64,000 nucleotides of DNA from a virus (IMGVR_UViG_3300028558_000001:1-64000), one strand, 5' to 3'; shown: positions 25,745-45,832, counted from the stretch's first letter. The notes: a model not told the origin generated them from the sequence alone. Numbers and translations: made by a program.

Positions 25745-25846
25745 AGTCCTCTAAATTTTTGTGAGAAATATTTTGAGTGACCTATGGTCGAGTAAAAAAT
25801 TATCGAAAATATTTTGATCGCTTTTCGGAACCACCCCCACGATCAT

Positions 25847-26545
25847 GATTCGCGCCAAATGTCAATGGTCGAAAGTCACTTATCCACAACTTTTTCAGCC
25901 TCAAAAAGCCGCCTCCCAAAAACCGACGACTCGCGATTGCCTAACCCATTGATTCGACTAGCTTTTCGACTCGGATTCATGCTCTCCAGCTAGGCTTTTT
26001 CGCCCTGTTTTTTACCAGCTAGAAAGCCCTTATGCGACTAAAGGCTATGCCCATTTCCTGCCCTAGGCGTCGTCTCACAAGGACAAGCCCTGACTCGCCC
26101 TAGGCTATCCCCTGACGCTGTTTAGACGGGGTTCTAGACTCGAATCTGGCTTGCCCTGACATGCCCCTATCGTGGCGAGTCCTATCGTCAGGGCATGATC
26201 TAACGCCCCTGACATGGGCTATCCCCTGACTCTCTTTCAAAGCGATTTGGAGCGGCGAGCAAGGGCGACTTTGCCCCTACTCGGCTACTATGCTAGCGGC
26301 CTATGTATTCAAGCCCTGTCCTTGCCCTTCTAATGGCGTTCTAGAGCCTATCTAACGAGTCATCCTTGACCTAGTTCTACCATGCCAATGGAATCGCCTA
26401 TCGAATCCCTTTCAAAGCCATTTCAAACGGGGCGAATCCCTATCGCTTATGCCATAACCTGTTGTTTTCTAATGGGCTTCGAATGCGCGATTCCCTTCCT
26501 ATTGCCTCGTTTTTGCCTGAATCACGATCTCCTAACCCATTGTTT
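25847..26545. other. Origin-like / protein-binding region (16 GANTC, one DnaA box, three IHF-like sites, six CCCTGAC)
   Basis: TTATCCACA 25880-25888; TAACCCATTGATT 25942-25954 and one-mismatch sites 26455-26467 and 26533-26545. Confidence 0.5.
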
Positions 26546-26607
26546 TCTAACGTGTTTTTTTAGGGCTTTGGATCATACCGAATTCGGTTATTCTAATTTC
26601 AGTTCAA

Positions 26608-27300
26608 CGGCCCCGGCGGAACGCCCCGGCCACAAGCCAAGAGGCAAATGGAAGCTAACGCGCTAAGCGCCTTGTCACTCGCAAGTAAAAACAGAGTCGC
26701 AACCTGACCTAGCAGGCAATTGCGTTAGTATTGTGCGATATAGCATAAGCACAATTTGCAACCATATGTTCTAGCGGGCTATCCCTAGCTAAACACTTGA
26801 GAGGATAGACGGCGAGTGCAGTATATCGCATTGCGCCTAGTGGCTAAGACCACAAGTCGAAAGTATCATTTCGCGGGAATAGCGCCACAAGAGTCCCTTA
26901 TAATTCGCTGATATTAGGCGAAAGGGATTGAAAGACTTAAGACGCTGAAATGGGTTAGCTAATCGCCAAAATGGCCTAAGCATTGCTTAGAATAGGGTTA
27001 GTTAATACGTGAGAAAGCTTAAAGTCTTTCCAGTATCAAGAAATGTATCTCTTGCGCGTTGCCATACGTGAATAAGCTTTGTTGTGAAACAATCCTTATA
27101 TGGCAAGCTAACTCATAAGCTTCTAATTTGTGAGTCTCCAAACTACTAACTATGCCCTAGCAAAGCCTAGCCTAATTGCCATATGGCCGGATAATCGCAA
27201 GATTGTTTGGTTATGAGGCAAGATAAAGCAAAGCTTTGCTAGGCTTTTCCTATGCTTAGCTTTCATTAGCTTGGCATTGGCAAAGCAAACTAAGCTTTGG
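26608..27300 (+). ncRNA. Candidate large structured RNA or long structured leader (~700 nt)
   Basis: No credible ORF; more than 12 nested helices with G-U pairs favouring the + strand; family not recognised. Confidence 0.6.
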
Positions 27301-27621: not shown

Positions 27622-27783
27622 ATGAAAAATGCGAGCAAAGCTAAGAAGGTTTCGCGCTCCTCTGCTTCCACTAAGAAGCAAAAGCCCCTGCCCTTCTTTG
27701 GCTTTCAAGATGAAATGGAAGAGATTCTTTCGGTTCATCTGGAAACGCGAGACTTTAACAAGTTTTGCGAGAATTATTATTGA
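27622..27783 (+). CDS. Small hypothetical protein (53 aa, basic N-half and acidic C-half; not in the ORF track)
   Basis: TAGGAG SD; MKNASKAKKVSRSS...ENYY; stop lies in the first junction hairpin. Confidence 0.75.
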   Translation: MKNASKAKKVSRSSASTKKQKPLPFFGFQDEMEEILSVHLETRDFNKFCENYY

Positions 27784-27846
27784 TTTAGTTCTAGGCAATG
27801 AAAGACTTGCCTAGGCATGAACCAATAAGACAATGGAGAAAAGAAA

Positions 27847-30800
27847 ATGTATATCTGCGAAGTGATAGACTTGGGCGACTTTTGCGCTCTCAAGTCTTCG
27901 GCGGTCTTTTTCTCTGAATCCAAAGCTTATACTTGGGGCGAAGAGAAAAAGAAAGAATTCCAAGATAAAGAGGAAGATGAATACTTCAAGAATTGTTTTG
28001 AAGTGAAAGTCTATCCTATCAACTGCCCTGAAATTGATTAGTTTAAACCTAGGCATTAGTAGCGCAAGCTGAATAGTGCCTAGTATTGAACTAATAAGTT
28101 CTAAGAGGAGAAAAGAAATGGAAAGCAAAGCGACTAAGGAAATGAACATCCTTTACATGCTTGCGGCAATTTTCTTCTTGTCGGTCATGCTGATTTGCAT
28201 GGTCAATGAGGAAGATCGGTCGGCTTGTGAGAAAATATATTCTCACGATACTTGCGTTGCACTAATCGACAGGTAAAGATTAGTTTAGTTCTAGGCATAT
28301 GATTGAATATGCCTAGGCATGAACTAATAAGTTCTAAGAGGAGAAAGTAAAATGAGCAATTTTCGTCAGACTTCTAAGCTTACCAAAGAACAATCTTTGG
28401 CTTTGCTTAAGGTTTATCATCGCGATTTGATGCGCGTTGCATCAAATTGTTCATATGAAGTCGAAAAGAAAGTAAATCTTGGGATTGATATGAAGACTCC
28501 AAGATGGAAAAGCTTTCTTGATTGTCGGCGGAAAGTTTCCCTTGGTTATGATTGCATCATGATACAGGTTGGAAACTACTGGCTTGGCATTGAAAAGGAC
28601 GGTTATTCGCATTCGTAAGTTTAAACCTAGGCAATGGTCAAACGTTGCCTAGTATTGAACTTATAATGAAAGTAAAAGGAGAAAAGAAAATGAAAGATGC
28701 AAATAAAACTGTTGCCGTTGCAATAGAGCCGGAAGATTTTCGGCGGCTTTCTGCAATTGCAATAAGGTTATATGACGGGAAAACTATGTCATATGACGAC
28801 CGGCGAGAATTAGCGGCACAAATCTCGGCTATTCTCGGAAGAGCGGAAGAATTACAGGCTGGCGATGTTATCTTATAACTGATTAGTTTGGTCATAGGCT
28901 AGGATAAAACTTAGCCTATGTATGAACTAATAAGTAAAGGAGAAATAAAATGGCAATGTCTATGCAGAATGCTTGGCAAGTTCTTAGTTCTATTGGTCTT
29001 TCTGGTAAGGAAGATTGGTATGAATTAAGTATTTCAAAGAAAAGCGAAGTATTTGAACTAGCAAAGAAGTGGAATTATACTTATCAATCGCCTTTAGGGC
29101 GGTCAGTTGGTTATTCTTTCTACCTTCATTTGCAGCGTAAACAAGGAAGGAAAGATTAGTCTGATTTGTTTTGCCTAATCGTGGCGCAAGCTAAAGGTTA
29201 GGCAAGGCAAACTAGATTAGAACTCTAGTTTAATAAGCAACGGAGAAAGCAAATGGCTATCGAAATCAAGCATCGTCCGACCTATAAGAATGTTTTTCAT
29301 AACTATTGGTCGGCGGAAACGATTGTTAAGTTTGAAAACAATCGGGAAATGCGTATTTCGACGCATAAAACATCTTCCGGCCAAATAGTTTCGTCGGCAA
29401 ATGTTGGAATTAATGAAAATGGCGGATGGCTTTGGGCGCCATTTTCTGACTTTGGAAAAAGGTTGCTTGTCACAAAAGGAAAAGCGACTGAAAAATATGT
29501 GACAAACCAACATAATGAAGCAATCAAAGATTTGGATACTTTGATTGCTCAAGCAAGAGCTTTCTATAAAAGCGAATAAGTCTGATTTAACTTGCTCAAC
29601 TAGGTTTAGGCTTAGTTGAGCAATGTAAACTAGATTTGTTTCTAGTGAATATAAAGGAGAAAAGAAATGGCAACTCGTTATCTTGTTGCGAATATTGAAA
29701 ACATTCGCAAAGTCAAGGCTGAGTGTACAGCCGCAAGGTTTAAATGGGCTTCTGAAAAGAAGTCTGTACTTTGTGACTTGTTTACGGCGTCTGCAATTAT
29801 TGCAGTATATGACGCCTTGAACGATGAAAACAAAGCAAAGGTTGAAAGAATGGTAGCAGCCTCACCAATGCTGTTTAGCAAGGTTGCTGGGTTTTGCTTT
29901 GAACATGTGAAGTAAAAGTATTGGTTTGGTCAATAGCATTTAGAAATAGATGCTATTGCATGAACTAATAGTAAAACAAAGGAGAAATACAATGGATGCG
30001 AAGCATTTGTGCGATTATATCGTCAATACTGGCGAGTTTTATCATATCCATGTTGATATGGCGAAAGGTAAAGCTTCCATTATTGAATGGCGCAATCGTG
30101 TTTTTGTTGGTCTTTCCAAGTATAGGATAGAATTTCATGAATATCATGAAGGTCTATCAACGTCCAACATTGAAAAATGCACTGATATGCTCAAAGAATA
30201 CTATGAAGAGCATATCAAAGAGTTGTAATTGTTAGTTTAAACCTAGGCATTAGAAATAGTGCCTAGTATTGAACTAATAAGGTTCAACATGGAGAAAAGA
30301 AATGGCAAATTATAACTTCATCGTTTACTTCACGCCTTATAAGTTTGAAGGTGACGATACTAATTGTTACTATAATGCCATAGGTTATGGATTCAAATGG
30401 AGATATATTCATAATATTGATCCTTACGAATATTATTATGATATAGTCTTCCGGCCTTCTGAAAGTATATTCATGGTCCCTAAAGCAATAGGCGATTGGG
30501 ATTGTGAATAAAAATTAGTTTAAGCCTAGCCATTAGAAATAGTGGCTAGTAGTGAACTAATAATGTTCAATAAAGGAGAAAGAAAATGTGCAAGGTTTAC
30601 TCTTTTCCTGCTTTGCAGACTCGCAAGGTTGTTAACGAATGCTTGCATATGCAAATGAAGGAACGCGCAACCTATGAAGAAATCGCGTTTATTCTTCTTA
30701 GGTTAAATGATACTGGCGAAAAGGTTTCGCTAGATGACTTCATTGCATGTATTGAATACATGCGGGAAGCAACTAAGACTGTTCATTAGTTTAGTTCTAG

Positions 30801-31440
30801 GCATATCTAAACAATATGCCTAGGCATGAACTAATAAACAATGGAGAAAAGAAAATGCGTTATGTTCAATATTATACTTCTGAAAATATGGAAGCTTTGG
30901 CAACTGATGGTTATTGTCCATTAGATGCAAGGTTTTCATTGTATAATGCAATGGCGCAAGCGCGGGAACATGGTTTGAAACTGAATAAAGACCTGAATAA
31001 AGGTTTCACTCACTTTCAAATTAGAAGGGCAGGAGGAAATAATATATTTTCCTCGTGGAGACCAGAAACGAAACTAATGAGACTGTAACTAGTCTTTATA
31101 AGTAGCATTAGAAATAGTGCTACTCAATAAACACTAGTAAAACAAAGGAGAAAAGAAAATGCTTTATCATCTTCACTTGTCGCGACATGTAAAAGGTATG
31201 GTTAAAGGGCCGGTTCATGCGGTTCCGCGCGGTATTGGATACGTTTGCGACTATGACGAAAATGGGGATGCGGTATGGCCGGATAATAAAGCGGTAAGGG
31301 AATGCTTACCAGCTTGTTATAGAAAGGCTTTCGATAGGTCATCCCCGTCAATGTATTCTAACTCTAAAGGAATACATTTCACGCTGTACGATACGCGGAA
31401 CAAGTATATTAATACAATATATTGTATTCCGAATATCTGA
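27847..31440 (+). other. Twelve small single-gene units between hairpins (27847-28041, 28118-28276, 28352-28618, 28690-28878, 28950-29159, 29253-29579, 29667-29915, 29992-30228, 30302-30511, 30586-30789, 30855-31088, 31159-31440); hypothetical proteins
   Basis: Each has a GGAGAAA SD; starts corrected to the ATG after the SD. Confidence 0.85.
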
Positions 31441-31510
31441 TTAGTTTAGTGAAGTACATTGGCAACAGTGTACTTCCATGAACTAATATAGTTCACAATG
31501 GAGAGAGAAA

Positions 31511-33046
31511 ATGAAAAGAGTTTGGTCGCCACAACAGAAGGCGTTTCTTGAATTCATCATGAACTCTACTAGTTCATGTGTTCTGATCGCTGTTGCTGGC
31601 GCTGGAAAGACTACGGTTATTCTTGCCGCTTGTGAGGATATTGCTGGTTCTTCTGCAATTCTTGCCTTTTCTAAGGCTATTGCCGAAGAGCTTAAAGCAA
31701 AACTCATTGCGATGGGAATTGACTGGAAAAAGGCTTTGGCCGGAACGGTTCATTCCTTTGGTTTTTCTGCGCTTCGCAAAGCTTTCCCGAATGTCAAGGT
31801 TGATAACTATAAGGTTGCCAATATCATTGGTGACTTTGTTAAGCTTGGCATATTCACAGAAGCGACGGCGGCCTATGCAGGAACTATTGGCAAGATTGTA
31901 AGCATGGCAAAGCAACGCGCTATTGGTGTGCTGGCTCGGCTCGATGATGTTAATCAATACTATGACATTATCGAGCATTTCGACGTTCTTGCTAATGACA
32001 ACGATTATCCTGAGCATGATGTTCTGGAAAATATTGTTCAGGCTGCTATCCGTGTACTGAAATCTTCGAATAGTCAGACTTCTATCGTCGATTATGACGA
32101 TATGGTTTACTTGCCGTTGATCCATCGTTGCCGGTTTTGGCAGTATGACAATGTATTCGTTGATGAGGCGCAAGATACTAATCCTGCGCGTCGTGCATTG
32201 GTTGCTGCATTGGTCAAGAAAGGCGGTCGAGTTATTGCTGTTGGTGATCCTTCGCAAGCAATCTTCGGATTTACTGGCGCGGATGCTGACTCGCTTGACT
32301 TGATTGCTAAAGACTTCAATGCTGAAAGACTTCCTCTGACGGTAACGTATCGTTGCCCGAAGGCGGTTGTTGCTTTCGCCCATCAATGGGTTGACCATAT
32401 TCAGGCACATGAAAGTGCGCCCGAAGGTTCTGTTACTGAAACCACTAAAGAAGCTTTCCTAGAGCGGAAAGATTTGGATGGCGAAGCGGCTGTACTTTGT
32501 AGAAATACAAAGCCTATTGTCGCCCTTGCCTTCGAATTGATCCGCCGCAAGGTCGCTTGCAAGGTGGAAGGGCGCGACATTGGTAACGGGCTAGTAAAGC
32601 TTGCTACTAAATGGTCGCGTATCAAAACATTGTCTGCCCTTCATGATAAGCTTACTGATTATTATGAAAGGGAGAAAGCTAAGCTTCTGCCTAAGAAGCA
32701 GGAGAACAAGCTTCAAGACATTGAAGACAGGGTTGAAACCTTGAAGGTTATTATTGAAGAGTGCCGCTCAAAGAATCAGGACAAGGTTTCCGATCTTGTC
32801 GTGGCAATTGAAGGTATCTTTGATGATAAAGTGAAAGGTATCCTTGTTCTTTCTACCATTCACAAGTCGAAAGGACGTGAATGGAAGCGAGTGTTCTGGC
32901 TTGACCGCAAGAATACTTGCCCTTCTAAATGGGCTAGGCAAGCGTGGCAAGTAGAACAGGAAAATAACCTGTGCTATGTTGCTGCTACTCGCTCAATGTC
33001 GGAACTGATTGAAATCATTGTTCCGGCCCTGCCCAAGGCCAAGTAA
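31511..33046 (+). CDS. UvrD/Rep-like superfamily 1 helicase
   Basis: AGAGKTT, VDEAQD, VGDPSQAI, TYRCP, TIHKSKGREW, YVAATR. Confidence 0.92.
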   Translation: MKRVWSPQQKAFLEFIMNSTSSCVLIAVAGAGKTTVILAACEDIAGSSAILAFSKAIAEELKAKLIAMGIDWKKALAGTVHSFGFSALRKAFPNVKVDNYKVANIIGDFVKLGIFTEATAAYAGTIGKIVSMAKQRAIGVLARLDDVNQYYDIIEHFDVLANDNDYPEHDVLENIVQAAIRVLKSSNSQTSIVDYDDMVYLPLIHRCRFWQYDNVFVDEAQDTNPARRALVAALVKKGGRVIAVGDPSQAIFGFTGADADSLDLIAKDFNAERLPLTVTYRCPKAVVAFAHQWVDHIQAHESAPEGSVTETTKEAFLERKDLDGEAAVLCRNTKPIVALAFELIRRKVACKVEGRDIGNGLVKLATKWSRIKTLSALHDKLTDYYEREKAKLLPKKQENKLQDIEDRVETLKVIIEECRSKNQDKVSDLVVAIEGIFDDKVKGILVLSTIHKSKGREWKRVFWLDRKNTCPSKWARQAWQVEQENNLCYVAATRSMSELIEIIVPALPKAK

Positions 33047-33112
33047 TATTGGTTTAGTCATTACCATAGGTCAAACTGTGGTAATGCATGAACTAATATA
33101 ATGGAGGGTACA

Positions 33113-35167
33113 ATGCAGAAAGCAAACTTTCTTGATAAGGTCGCTTCTCTCTATCGTTGTGGTAATCGTTCTGACCATGATGAGAAATTGAATAATGCGC
33201 CAGATGAGACTTGGACTAAGCCTGAAATGGCTGGAAAGGCTTGTTGTGCATTGCTTGATGAAATGCTTCAAGCAATGATTAAGTGCAATGCCCTGACTTC
33301 GGAAGATGTTCAGGAAATGTATGATAATCTATGATTAGTTAATAGTTGCTCATTAGAAATAGTGAGCAATCATGAACTAATGTAGTTCACAGTGGAGAAA
33401 ACAAATGAGCATGTCTTTTAATGAAGAGTCTGGCTATTACATTGCTAATCATAACAATGGTTATGCAATCTTTAGTTATGAAACCGAAGAAATGGTTTTC
33501 TTCCATGAAAACTTTCGGAAGGTTCTGACTCGCAAGAACAAACTCATGAAGAAGGTCAAGTAAAATGGTTCTTACTTCTGAAATCGTGAGAGACTATATA
33601 GTATCACTCTATGGTAATATCGAAATCTGTGATATTATTCATGGTGACGATCAAGAACCTAATCGAGACTTCTGGCAAGTCTTCTGTAATATCAATAATA
33701 CAGGTACTCGACTCGTTGTTTGGGTTGAAACCTCAGAAGACGGAGAGAAGTATATTGAGGTCGCTTGATTAGTTTAAGCCTAGCCATTAGTAGCGCAAGC
33801 TGTATAGTGGCTAGTAGTGAACTAATAAAACTAAGGAGAAAGCAAATGAATATTGTCAAGCAAACGGCAGAAGGTAAGACTGTCAAGCAGCTTCCTACTT
33901 ACTTTGAAGTTGTCGGCAATGACATTTATCTTGGTTCTCACAAGATCGGTACTCTCAATACTGAAATGTGGTCAACCATGACTGATCTTGTTGTTGAGAT
34001 GCTTGAGAATGATACTACTCAGCTTGAGAAAGATCATGAAGAAGCTTTGAAAGAAGCAGAAGATGATTATGCTCAGAAGCTTGAAGAGTGGGAAGATAAA
34101 GTAGAAGACCTGAAAGAAGAAGTTTCAGGTCTTGAGGCTCTCAATAGAGAGCAAGAGGAAATTCTGAATAGACTTGAACTTGCCGAAGGTGTACTTGGCA
34201 GGATCAAGGAACTTGAAGAAGAAAACGATGAATGGCGCGAGAAAGTCTCTGAGTTGTCACGTAAAGTCAGAGAGTTGACTCCTAAGCCCAAGAGAAACTA
34301 CAATAGGCGAGTTGCCTGATTAGTTAATAGTTGCTCATTAGAAATAGTGAGCAATCATGAACTAATAGCAATGAAAAGGAGAAAGCAAATGCGTCCGTAT
34401 AAAATGACGGATAACAAAGGTCTACAGCCTGATATGACGGTTGATCTTTGGGCTAAACGTGACAATACTACATCAGGCCGGGGCAAATGGCGCTTGGCGT
34501 GGTGGAAACGTGGTAAGGATAGCTTTGTATATGCCGAAGGCGAATGCTCAGCTAACTATTTTAATACTGCCAAAGATGCATTGGCATATGGATTGCGAAG
34601 GTATGATGAAAAAGGAAAGATTTGGCCTCGCAATGAATACTGATTAGACAGTTTTATTGTGTCAACTAGTTTAGTAAAAAGACTAGTTGACATAAGTAAA
34701 CCTATCTGATATGAGGATTGGTTTAGTAAGGAGAAAACAATGATCCAAGTTTATAGAGTGACAATAACCGTCCCTGATAATCATCCTGATAATAAGGATG
34801 GTTTCGCCCTCCGTCGTCAGTTTATTATCGGTCAGCCGGTTATAGACATTATCAGGGATAAGGTGGAAGCAAAGGGTTATGAATTCAGTTGGGCTATTGA
34901 CCATATCATGACGCCGACTGAAATCATGAACGAGATTGCCAAGGAGTTTGAACGATGAATTTCAGGGTCTATTACCCTGATCTTGGCTTCTATCTTTCTT
35001 CTGCATATCATACACTAGATGATGCTGTACAAGCAGGGAAGAAAATTAGAAACGATTACATCGTGAAGCACATGGGCGGCGAGTCAATTGCCTTTCATGG
35101 AAAATTCGTCGGTTTGGTTGTGGTTCCTGAAAAAAGTTCCAAAACCATGTTGACAAAGCCAAAATGA
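33113..35167 (+). other. Small hypothetical genes (33113-33334, 33405-33563, 33565-33768, 34389-34643, 34740-34958, 34955-35167)
   Basis: SD-preceded ORFs; 33405-33563 (52 aa) is not in the ORF track. Confidence 0.75.
33846..34319 (+). CDS. Acidic coiled-coil protein with basic tail
   Basis: Long E-rich heptads; ends PKPKRNYNRRVA. Confidence 0.8.
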   Translation: MNIVKQTAEGKTVKQLPTYFEVVGNDIYLGSHKIGTLNTEMWSTMTDLVVEMLENDTTQLEKDHEEALKEAEDDYAQKLEEWEDKVEDLKEEVSGLEALNREQEEILNRLELAEGVLGRIKELEEENDEWREKVSELSRKVRELTPKPKRNYNRRVA

Positions 35168-35178
35168 GTCTTTAGGTT
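35150..35178 (+). promoter_or_regulatory. Sigma70-type promoter
   Basis: TTGACA-N17-TAGGTT with GAGTC in the spacer and an A-rich upstream tract. Confidence 0.5.
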
Positions 35179-35239
35179 GTGGTCATGCTCAAGAAAAGGA
35201 GCGACGGCGAAAACGGAATGAAAAAAAGTAGCGATTGAG

Positions 35240-35302
35240 TGGTTTTTTATTGTTGCATTATCTCTAGTACCGTGCTACTGATAATGCAACAGCATGAAAC
35301 CA
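35240..35302 (+). repeat. Divergent copy of the two-tier hairpin
   Basis: TGGTTT/AAACCA lower stem; TGTTGCATTATC/GATAATGCAACA upper stem. Confidence 0.7.
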
Positions 35303-35367
35303 AACAAAAGACGGTTTCAAGTGTGGTAAGTGAAGTTAACAATTAACCCAAACTAGGAGAATGTAAC

Positions 35368-36375: not shown

Positions 36376-36813
36376 TCTCTTTCTAATGGGTGATCCAATG
36401 TCTATGGATATGAGCAAGCTGAATAAGAATATCGTGAATGATGTAATTGCGTTTCACGATTGGGATAACGAGGAGTCCGGCGAAAGGGCTGCTCGTTATT
36501 TCCTCCTTGCCTCTCCAATTGACGTGCTGCTGGATTATCTGAATTATAATGGTATTCTTGGATATGATACCGATATTAAGAATATCCTGTCCTCTGGTAT
36601 CCATAAGGGAGAATGAAATGTTGGTATTTGACAATCTATACGGTCAGCCACTTAATTGTATCTGTTATATTTCTCCAACTAAACTTGGATATGAGATACA
36701 GCATAGAGGATTTAATGACTATTATAATCAGGAGGTAACAGAAGGAGATTGGCTATATTATCCTTCTGAAAGCCTCATGATGGTTCCCAAGGAAGTTGGT
36801 GATTGGGATTGTT

Positions 36814-36871
36814 AATCAGTTGACAGGGTAGCTATAGGAGCATATCTTATAGCTACCTCAGTGAACTTGTT
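36814..36871 (+). repeat. Divergent two-tier hairpin containing a sigma70-like promoter
   Basis: GGGTAGCTATAGGA/TCTTATAGCTACCT stem; TTGACA(36820)-N17-TATCTT. Confidence 0.65.
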
Positions 36872-37445: not shown

Positions 37446-39383
37446 GAGCCTATTATGGCAACTAATTCTCTTGAATATGGTATCGTTACTTCTGCAACAC
37501 CAGAAATCAGGTTGTTTGATAGAAACGACGATAATGTTCATATGAACCCAATGCCCGGTAAAGGTTTCAGGTTCTATCGTAACTCTCCTGAGACTTGCGC
37601 CTTGCAAATCAGGGGAGAAAAGCGTTACGCTCATATCTCACTAAACGTTCCTGAACTGGAACTGTTGAGGGAAGCAATCAATAATGAGATTGATTATCTT
37701 CGTCCTCCTATGGGAACCAAACGATAAGGAGTTAATCATGAAGTACATGACTCGCAATATCTTCTCTAACAAACAATGGAATTGTCAAGCGGTAATCATG
37801 GAGGTTATGGATTCTGTTAGTCCATATGTTGTCATGATCCATCCTATGTATGGTCCCAACAGGATTCAACAGGAGCCTAGGGAATTCAAAACAGAGGAAG
37901 AGGCAATTGAATTTGCCAAGAAGGTGATTGGCGTTAACTAAACTTTGGAGGTTTGACTAATATCTAATTAGGATATGGTTGTTGGGATATAATGATCGTC
38001 AGAATAAAGAGTGTTTGATATAAAGGTTGACTAACCAGAATCCATATGGTTTTATAGCTATATGGATTCGAGTGAGTTTACTTCTTATGAAAGGAAATCA
38101 AAATGGACAAGGACATTAAGACGCTTGAGCAAGAGATTGCGACTCAAGAAGCCTTCTTGTTTAACCTCAAGAAGATTAAGAAAGAGAAAGAGGATGCAAT
38201 TCGAGAGAATGTCAAGCCTATCTTTAAATGGGTTGCTGTGAGGCGTCATCCTCGCCAGCATGATTCCTTTGACTTCATGTATGATACTTCAATTGTAAAG
38301 TATTACATATATCGTGAGTGCATGAACAAGGATGAAATGAGGGCTGCTAAGATTTCTGATTGGAATTGGTCTACTGGTGGCATGGATTACCTGTTTAATA
38401 CTGGTAATGGAATGCTAATCACTGGTATTTCTGGGGGGACTCTTATCTTTAATGCAGAAGAAAAGGATCGTCATCTTTGGCTAGAGGTATCGGAATTCCT
38501 TTGCAAGAATCCTGATGGCGGTGATCTTACTCATATCTTTGTGGGAGAATGAAACTATGGCCGACTTCATTCCAAAAAATATTCCTGCATCTGTAAAGAA
38601 AAGGCTCGTTGATTGGAGTGATGAGCGGAGAACAGAGGGCAGATACTTTCTAGCAACTGCCTATGGATGGGCATTTGAACCATCAGATAATGAAGATATT
38701 GCTCTTCATTGTAAATCATTTGGCACTAGAAAAGAAGCATTTGACTATGTTATGAAATATGTTAAGCCCTGCTCATGCGGAAGATGCATTCGTGGAAAGG
38801 AATGAAACTAATGATTAAGTATGTACAGATCAATGACTTTATCTATCAAGTTATTCTTGATGGGCAAGTCATTGGCAAGATCAATAGGAAAAATGAGGGA
38901 TGGCAATATACTCCGACAGGATCGAAGATAAGCGGGGGTTATTTTCCTACTCTTCGATCCTGTAAACAATCATTGGGGTGTTAACATGACATATACTGAT
39001 AGATTCCTTGGTCAAGATCATACAGTAGTTCAATATATAATTGAAGGACAATATAACCTAAACTGTTCAGATTCCTATGCTGGTAAATGGTCTTATCTAG
39101 GAGATAATATCTTCCCTGAACATTTTGGGGAACGCCATGCAAAGTATGGTGAAAAATGGGTTGATGTATGCCCATTTTTCCTTGCATATAAAGATGGGTG
39201 GCAAGTAACAGGCCATTCGGGATATGCTAAAGAAGAACTGGCGAAGGAAGCATTCTTGCGCTTTATCCAGAATTACCCGCGTGATGGATATTACATAAAT
39301 TTCCGCTTGACAAAGAGAATCGTGACGGTTAAAAACGAGACTGTAGATTCACTGTATTGACGAAATAATTTTGATAAGGAGTT

Positions 39384-45769: not shown

Positions 45770-45771
45770 AG

Positions 45772-45819
45772 ATTAGCTTTACAGGAGGCATCAGAAATGG
45801 TGCCTCTCATAAAGTTAAT
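45772..45819 (+). repeat. Outlying copy of the two-tier hairpin
   Basis: ATTAGCTTTA/TAAAGTTAAT lower stem; GGAGGCATCA-GAAA-TGGTGCCTCT upper stem; SD follows. Confidence 0.8.
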
Positions 45820-45832
45820 ATAGGAGGATATT

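Follow-up and report, generated by a model that had tools for sequence, protein, structure and literature searches.

A downstream partner for the 3' arms of repeated junction hairpins in the early gene array of a large phage genome

The early gene array and its junction hairpins

The stretch analyzed in this study (hereafter the window) is the first 64 kb of the virus record IMGVR_UViG_3300028558_000001, which is 176,660 bp in length and carries direct terminal repeats; the phage is uncultured and was recovered from a metagenome. Between 27.8 and 35.4 kb lie approximately 25 small genes on the plus strand and a single gene for a UvrD-type helicase, and similar-looking gaps of 63-96 nt separate the genes across this early array. 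We here describe the hairpin occupying these gaps (the junction hairpin) and a short complement to its 3' arm (the partner), which is found in about half of the copies shortly before the Shine-Dalgarno (SD) sequence of the next gene. None of the small early proteins was given a family assignment.

In protein comparison, the large terminase (TerL) of this phage appeared to be ~50% identical to those of the T4-type phages of Sinorhizobium, phiM12 and phiN3, and the best relatives among the 8000 candidates scored from a collection of 5.8 billion proteins were at most ~65% identical. Thus, as far as TerL can tell, the phage is an isolated member of the T4 superfamily. The host is probably an alphaproteobacterium. 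Neither a phage-encoded RNase III nor a phage-encoded RegB was found, the latter being a weak answer as the RegB control matched nowhere.

Every gap was predicted to fold into a two-tier hairpin, in which a lower stem of ~10 bp and an upper stem of 10-14 bp are separated by a small internal loop (2x2 to about 5x5). The upper stem is variable and mostly capped by a GNRA tetraloop, while the sequence of the lower stem is conserved. In 17 of the 19 junctions of the array (J1 to J19; Table 1), the 5' arm of the lower stem begins -7 to +2 nt from the stop codon of the upstream gene; the stop codon of J19 is 76 nt from the arm. The helix in total makes up about two helical turns, as do the substrates of host RNase III in the early RNA of T7. 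Three otherwise different upper stems (28036-28097, 29154-29221, and 33767-33828) share the same inserted mini-hairpin with a GCAA tetraloop, and most of the other copies are capped by a GAAA tetraloop.

In an alignment of 15 copies, 94.6% of the cells were paired and 13 of the 20 pairs were changed on both sides; the paired share dropped to 28-45% in the controls in which the alignment was slid. Two positions of the alignment are mostly U-G wobbles. The covariance model built from the alignment scored 56-70 bits on the plus strand but 20-40 bits on the minus strand, and its matches were confined to 27.4-45.8 kb of the genome. As the pairs covary, U-G wobbles are common, and the plus strand outscores the minus strand, the junction hairpin is an RNA structure of the sense transcript.

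No Rfam family matched the window at its gathering score. Between 25.5 and 38.5 kb, we counted 26 sigma-70-like promoter sites versus 28.3 expected, none of them in J1 to J19; the sole junction with such a site is an outlier (at 36820). Terminator-like sites were not in excess there either, and none of the 18 coincided with a junction hairpin. The promoter driving the early array was not found by the sigma-70 scan. Directly upstream of the array, ~1.4 kb between divergent gene blocks (25800-27300) is devoid of any credible gene.

A second partner for the 3' arm

We refer to the segment from the upper stem to the SD as the tail of a junction, and to those of its bases that are paired in the lower stem as the arm. 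Each tail was searched for the longest Watson-Crick helix with its 5' strand in the arm and a loop of 3-20 nt, and the null was obtained from shuffled spacers (5000 rounds). Ten such helices had been listed in a prediction made earlier from the sequence alone (hereafter the original prediction), and all of them were found where it had placed them. For the helices at 28088 and 28321, the location was correct but the length was not: 4 bp had been given, and we found 5 bp with a 4-nt loop. Since each alternative helix uses bases that are shared with the lower stem, the two folds exclude each other, as had been proposed.

Helices of at least 5 bp were found in 10 of the 19 tails, compared with 1.15 in the shuffles (standard deviation of 1.0; maximum of 6 in 5000). 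The corresponding counts were 7 of 19 for at least 6 bp (0.26 in the shuffles) and 4 of 19 for at least 7 bp (0.05), and with G.U pairs permitted, helices of at least 7 bp were present in 5 of 19 (0.26 expected). An automatic pipeline, in which the upper stems were found automatically and a fixed 13-nt arm was used with no hand-set arms, returned 9 of 18 versus 1.10 expected. Downstream complementarity is therefore more frequent than in shuffled controls, as the original prediction required. If the four outlying copies are included, the frequency is 10 of 23. No excess was seen in the mirror pairing between the 5' arm and its upstream flank, and the 32-nt segments preceding the SDs of 166 other genes in this genome contained hairpins of at least 5 bp in 22% of the cases, versus 23% after shuffling. 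In the copies with no partner, complements of the arm within the first 60 nt of the next open reading frame (ORF) were within chance. Two of them, a 7-nt complement downstream of J5 (28984-28990) and one downstream of J11 (30864-30868), both lie in the first codons of the next ORF, and pairing with them would place the ribosome-binding site inside a large loop. We regard the partner as confirmed to be a real, non-random feature of the junctions.

All folding probabilities and energies given here were calculated in silico, and the cut RNA was modelled as starting right after the upper stem. In the RNA of the whole junction, the probability of the alternative helix ranged from 1e-6 to 0.04 in eight of the ten copies, the exceptions being J3 (0.25) and J18 (0.89), both of which have a weak lower stem. 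Upon removal of the 5' arm, the probability rose to 0.55-0.97, in agreement with the switch that the original prediction envisaged. As the alternative fold hardly forms in the uncut RNA but prevails after loss of the 5' arm, the model indicates that there is no equilibrium bistability and that the second fold needs a trigger, namely a cut or a ribosome on the 5' arm. The modelled cut RNA retains 2-5 unpaired nt at its 5' end before the alternative helix, and the alternative hairpins alone have free energies of -2.5 to -7.4 kcal/mol. The lower stem as a two-strand duplex is at -2 to -8.5 kcal/mol, implying micromolar to millimolar dissociation constants, and such a weak duplex suggests that the cut halves would separate. 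The alternative helix ends 3-10 nt before the SD in nine of the ten copies (3-5 nt in six), with J19 as the exception.

The original prediction also held that the partner changes with the arm. This is the case between the three arm classes, but no double substitution was found within a class. When the arms were joined to the spacers of other copies, the partner-bearing spacers paired best with the arms of their own class, although the separation is not absolute as the classes share a few bases. In the window genome, all ten helices are perfect Watson-Crick blocks, and there is no stepwise compensatory change within a class. The tails of J2 and J3 are identical, and J13/J15 and J9/J10 are close to each other. 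Thus, the copies are not independent, and the ten cases perhaps reduce to four to six independent origins; by our count there are at least four lineages, which is still far above chance. Within the close pairs, the partner bases are kept at 19 of 21 positions versus 12 of 25 for the other spacer bases (P = 0.002), and the helix is kept between J6 and J7, of which the loops differ throughout. We consider that the partner is probably, albeit by no means surely, maintained by selection.

Table 1. Positions of the junction hairpins in the window and of the alternative helices formed by their 3' arms
Feature	Position	Strand	Alternative helix	Remark
J1 (lower stem, internal loop, upper stem)	27782..27828	+	no partner	
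J2 hairpin and partner	28036..28101	+	28088-28101, 5 bp, 4-nt loop	helix ends 5 nt before SD
J3 hairpin and partner	28278..28334	+	28321-28334, 5 bp, 4-nt loop	tail identical to J2
J4 hairpin	28616..28666	+	no partner	
J5 hairpin	28881..28933	+	no partner in spacer	
J6 hairpin	29154..29231	+	29209-29231, 8 bp, 7-nt loop	second arm class
J7 hairpin	29577..29646	+	29629-29646, 6 bp, 6-nt loop	second arm class
J8 hairpin	29918..29971	+	no partner	
J9 hairpin	30231..30287	+	30269-30287, 6 bp (7 bp with one G.U), 7-nt loop	
J10 hairpin	30513..30569	+	30553-30569, 5 bp, 7-nt loop	
J11 hairpin	30784..30837	+	no partner in spacer	
J12 hairpin	31086..31140	+	no partner	divergent arms
J13 hairpin	31439..31495	+	31479-31495, 7 bp, 3-nt loop	before UvrD-type helicase gene
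J14 hairpin	33047..33099	+		spacer too short for partner
J15 hairpin	33333..33389	+	33373-33389, 7 bp, 3-nt loop	
J16 hairpin	33767..33828	+	no partner	
J17 hairpin	34318..34368	+	no partner	hairpin identical to J15
J18 divergent hairpin	34640..34725	+	34697-34725, 6 bp, 17-nt loop	third arm class, weak lower stem
J19 divergent hairpin	35235..35319	+	35295-35319, 7 bp, 11-nt loop	third arm class; helix 36 nt before SD
Outlying hairpin	36813..36870	+	no partner	sigma-70-like hexamer pair inside (10-of-12 match, 17-nt spacing)
Outlying hairpin	38029..38075	+	no partner	
Outlying hairpin	45771..45821	+	no partner	found by covariance model
Outlying copy	27477		no partner	

Junctions in related phages

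Homologues of two early proteins led us to sequences of related, likewise uncultured phages, namely L266 (from JGI sample 3300045806, in which the closest terminase fragment was found as well), L267/L268 (Logan), L269, and L270/L271. The relatives have the same layout, in which small genes alternate with two-tier junction hairpins, and add further arm classes; several of their junctions were matched by the covariance model of the window at 25-43 bits. In 16 junctions defined by coordinates in L266, L267, and L269, a partner of at least 5 bp was found in five (null of 1.70, P = 0.013). With G.U pairs permitted, helices of at least 6 bp were found in 5 of 16 (null of 1.24, P = 0.002) and those of at least 7 bp in 3 of 16 (null of 0.37, P = 0.002), and three helices contain G.U pairs. 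The second arm class is represented by six copies over three phages, and five of these copies bear a partner, the loops being 3 to 12 nt in length. In the slot of L266 orthologous to J19, a 6-bp helix is kept, in which a G.U pair accommodates the replacement of A by G in the arm. Altogether, the partner is recurrent in the relatives but labile, being gained and lost between orthologous slots.

Pattern scans of viral and metagenome contigs returned single chance matches only, scoring below 30 bits with the covariance model. The relatives of the helicase (40-70% identity; L009-L013 and L135-L139) are encoded among tightly packed genes with no such junctions, and the helicase is of no use as a marker for the lineage of this phage. 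The covariance model had no match in the whole genome of phiM12 (L255-L264). Inspection by eye revealed repeated hairpins in phiM12 near 98,900 (plus strand) and 36,785 (minus strand), which carry a -35-type hexamer in the loop and are followed by an AT-rich stretch and an SD; they resemble the PeSL cassettes of T4-type phages (see below) and are unlike the two-tier junction. A -35-type hexamer of sigma-70 also lies inside the stem or loop of some junction-like hairpins (36813-36870 in the window, 7337-7368 in L266, and 6702-6733 in L267), and these are more similar to PeSL cassettes than the core array is. In addition, a cascade of four segments was observed in L266 (5245-5345): the 3' arm pairs with the 5' arm or, alternatively, forms 9 bp with a downstream complement, which in turn pairs with the fourth segment in the minimum-energy fold, resembling the layout of an attenuator.

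Possible roles of the partner

The original prediction interpreted the partner as a latent hairpin that caps the 5' end of the downstream message after cleavage. In our version of this scheme, the two-tier hairpins would punctuate a long early transcript of the T4-superfamily phage, and a host enzyme of the RNase III type would cut in or beside the internal loop. The upper stem would stay on the upstream message as a 3' cap, and the freed 3' arm would pair with the short complement lying 3-10 nt before the next SD where one is present. The downstream message would thereby gain a 5'-proximal stem-loop, which may slow the attack dependent on the 5' end (by RNase E, RNase J, or pyrophosphohydrolase) and leave the SD uncovered, while the copies with no partner would give rise to shorter-lived messages. 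The structural premises of this scheme stood up in our analysis: the switch operates in silico, the lower duplex is weak, the SD lies outside the helix in all ten copies, and the partner is conserved and recurs in the relatives. On the other hand, the exposure of the SD, which was part of the original prediction, was not uniformly reproduced, as the predicted accessibility after the cut varied from 0.04 to 0.96. We tentatively adopt the latent 5' cap as the model for the partner, with a probability of roughly 0.4.

The known elements most similar to the junctions are the RNase III sites of the R1.1 type in T7, which span two helical turns with an internal loop and are located between cistrons (PMC1540722; PMC6121014). 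A substrate with an internal loop is cut only once by RNase III, and protective 3' hairpins are left behind (PMC1540722); RNase III of S. meliloti cuts T7 R1.1 (PMC6121014). Like the early sites of T7 (R0.3, R0.5, R1, R1.1, and R1.3), the junctions are intercistronic, comprise about two turns and an internal loop, and are followed by the next ribosome-binding site, and the upper stem would likewise remain as a 3' cap. They differ in bearing no sequence similarity to the T7 sites, in belonging to a different host and phage family, and in having a sequence-conserved lower stem that starts at the stop codon. Moreover, cleavage has been proven for T7, whereas the junctions are known from sequence and predicted folds. 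We folded the five early sites of T7, and what we take to be the cut positions lie on the 3' side of the internal loop. In the R1.1 fold (L265, 5888-5910), a 7-nt complement lies shortly downstream of the lower stem and pairs with its 3' arm to form a 7-bp hairpin, presumably 1 nt from the RNase III cut; nothing similar was found in the other four sites. The R1.1 downstream hairpin overlaps the promoter phi1.1B. We regard it as slightly better than an even bet that the junction hairpins are processing or stability signals for a host double-strand RNase.

The logic of cut and refolding has a precedent in cspA of S. aureus, in which RNase III cuts a 32-bp leader hairpin and a smaller 5' hairpin forms, with the half-life extended from <2.5 to >16 min and ribosome binding improved (PMC3386247). 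The order of events is the one proposed here, from the cut in a long hairpin through the refolding of the truncated leader to an mRNA with improved stability and translation. In contrast to the junctions, cspA represents a single chromosomal 5' untranslated region rather than a repeated intercistronic cassette, and it has been tested experimentally in a Gram-positive host with RNase J1 as the 5' exonuclease. For the junctions, it is physically plausible that the downstream product of a cut would refold in such a manner. Stabilizing stem-loops at the 5' terminus are also known from ompA-type leaders and as roadblocks to RNase J (reviewed in PMC3997798). These leaders are comparable to the junctions in that a small hairpin, located close to or at the 5' end, precedes a ribosome-binding site that is left exposed, but their hairpin is present in the primary transcript, whereas the one considered here is latent and would require the 5' arm to be removed or unwound.

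In T4-type phages, a strong sigma-70 promoter combined with a terminator stem-loop defines the PeSL cassettes (PMC2839356; PMC4122927). Both PeSLs and the junctions are repeats of ~70-100 nt that fill the interval between the stop codon of one small ORFan and the start codon of the next in the plastic parts of T4-type genomes, contain a stem-loop followed by an SD and ATG at the end, and are likely substrates for cassette shuffling. However, the junctions have no promoter- or terminator-like sites above chance, and their stem is two-tiered with an internal loop. Judging from these comparisons, the junctions seem best filed as a variant of the intercistronic processing signals of the T7 type, in which the new part is the frequent, optional refolding partner (10 of 23 copies here versus one of the five T7 sites).

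Several observations weigh against the latent 5' cap. First, 13 of the 23 copies are devoid of a partner, and only one of the five T7 early sites shows a refolding hairpin. The relatives provide similar cases: the commonest junction class in L266 has no partner, a copy in L269 downstream of the homologue of the J6 gene lacks the partner that J7 has, and a copy in L267c with a J18-type arm runs directly into the SD. Second, the 5-bp hairpins are marginal in stability (-2.5 kcal/mol), the predicted accessibility of the SD after the cut is not systematically high, and within the arm, the helix begins no nearer to the internal loop than chance hits do, lending no support to a hairpin flush with the 5' end. 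Third, the arm would not survive a double cut within the lower stem. As the phage has neither RNase III nor RegB of its own, processing would depend wholly on an enzyme of the host. Finally, the covariation between the arm classes can arise by templated fold-back mutation with no selection.

The last point leads to the alternative that survives best, in which the partner is functionless. Fold-back (template-switch) events copy the arm in reverse complement, so that a by-product of such mutations beside a strong inverted repeat would match the adjoining arm, and recombination of the cassettes would then spread it. Template switching has been documented to create RNA hairpins (PMC8794818). The perfect Watson-Crick helices of the window genome, which end sharply and enclose short loops, are the signature expected of templated copying, and the covariation seen between the arm classes but never as stepwise double changes within a class, the evident duplicates (J2/J3 and J13/J15), and the gain and loss of the partner in orthologous slots all fit this origin. 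Nevertheless, neither the SDs of the 166 other genes nor the mirror side of the hairpins displayed an excess of short perfect hairpins, and thus no background rate of fold-back events is visible. The recurrence in at least four independent lineages among 19 short spacers, the conservation of the partner bases above that of the neighbouring spacer along with wholly different loops (J6 versus J7), and the G.U pairs in the relatives also speak against a functionless by-product. We therefore consider this explanation unlikely, though it deserves to be kept in mind.

An alternative with no cleavage invokes the ribosome. As the stop codon adjoins the start of the 5' arm in 17 of the 19 junctions, a terminating ribosome must open the lower stem; the 3' arm could then snap to the partner, and the transient hairpin 3-5 nt from the SD would couple or damp the initiation of the next gene. 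The distance between the helix end and the SD in six of the ten copies agrees with this proposal, and so does the interference with initiation by a stable hairpin a few nt upstream of the SD, reported in work cited in PMC3386247. However, the SD is unpaired in both states, leaving no clear on/off logic, and the lower stem is thermodynamically favoured after the departure of the ribosome. J19, with both its helix far from the SD and its stop codon far from the arm, does not conform either, and we judge a switch driven by the ribosome to be distinctly unlikely.

The partner and the arm could instead be the halves of a protein-binding inverted repeat, acting as a DNA operator for a dimeric protein or as an RNA hairpin for a translational repressor. 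Four junction copies have the same half-sites at the same 7-nt spacing, and a fifth palindrome with the shared half-sites and spacing (31558-31578; 8 bp perfect, 5-nt loop) is located within the helicase ORF, 47 nt past its start codon and 81 nt downstream of the alternative hairpin of J13; these five are the only palindromes of the kind in the genome, in which 0.1 would be expected. Nevertheless, the sequence and spacing of the half-sites differ by class (loops of 3 to 17 nt), the loops are not conserved, and the G.U pairs in the relatives favour RNA pairing over a DNA site. As a genome-wide operator motif, the half-site pair was rejected, since it was not enriched once real tetramer frequencies were used. 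Altogether, a protein-binding role appears improbable. Lastly, pairs formed between the partner and the end of the upstream gene might simply extend the lower stem, and 3-6 such pairs are drawn in the minimum-energy folds of J2, J9, and J10, but the complementarity between the spacer and the 15 nt of coding sequence upstream of the 5' arm was no greater than in the shuffles (P = 0.37-0.78), and we thus rejected this reading as having almost no likelihood.

If the latent 5' cap model is pursued further, the junction cassette may be viewed as a modular dial of mRNA half-life, in which a shared processing hairpin divides up the early transcript, and a short, optional complement of the 3' arm, which templated mutation readily creates or removes, sets the 5' cap gene by gene; we regard this extended view, taken as a whole, as doubtful. 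Were the partner to set the lifetime of the message, the phage would tune the dosage of dozens of small early genes in one transcription unit by an element of 5-8 nt that can appear or vanish in a single mutational event. The same latent design would then possibly occur in T7 R1.1 and other punctuation hairpins of phages, and if general, it would represent an overlooked layer of gene-dosage control in phages. It would also offer a compact and portable design for synthetic operons, with one processing hairpin and an optional, built-in 5' cap. If the partner is inert, the junctions would instead illustrate clearly how, in nature, templated mutation adds new hairpins next to those already in place. 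In both cases, mRNA punctuation in the style of T7 would be extended to the phages of the T4 superfamily, in which the promoter-terminator cassettes (PeSLs) are the known pattern.

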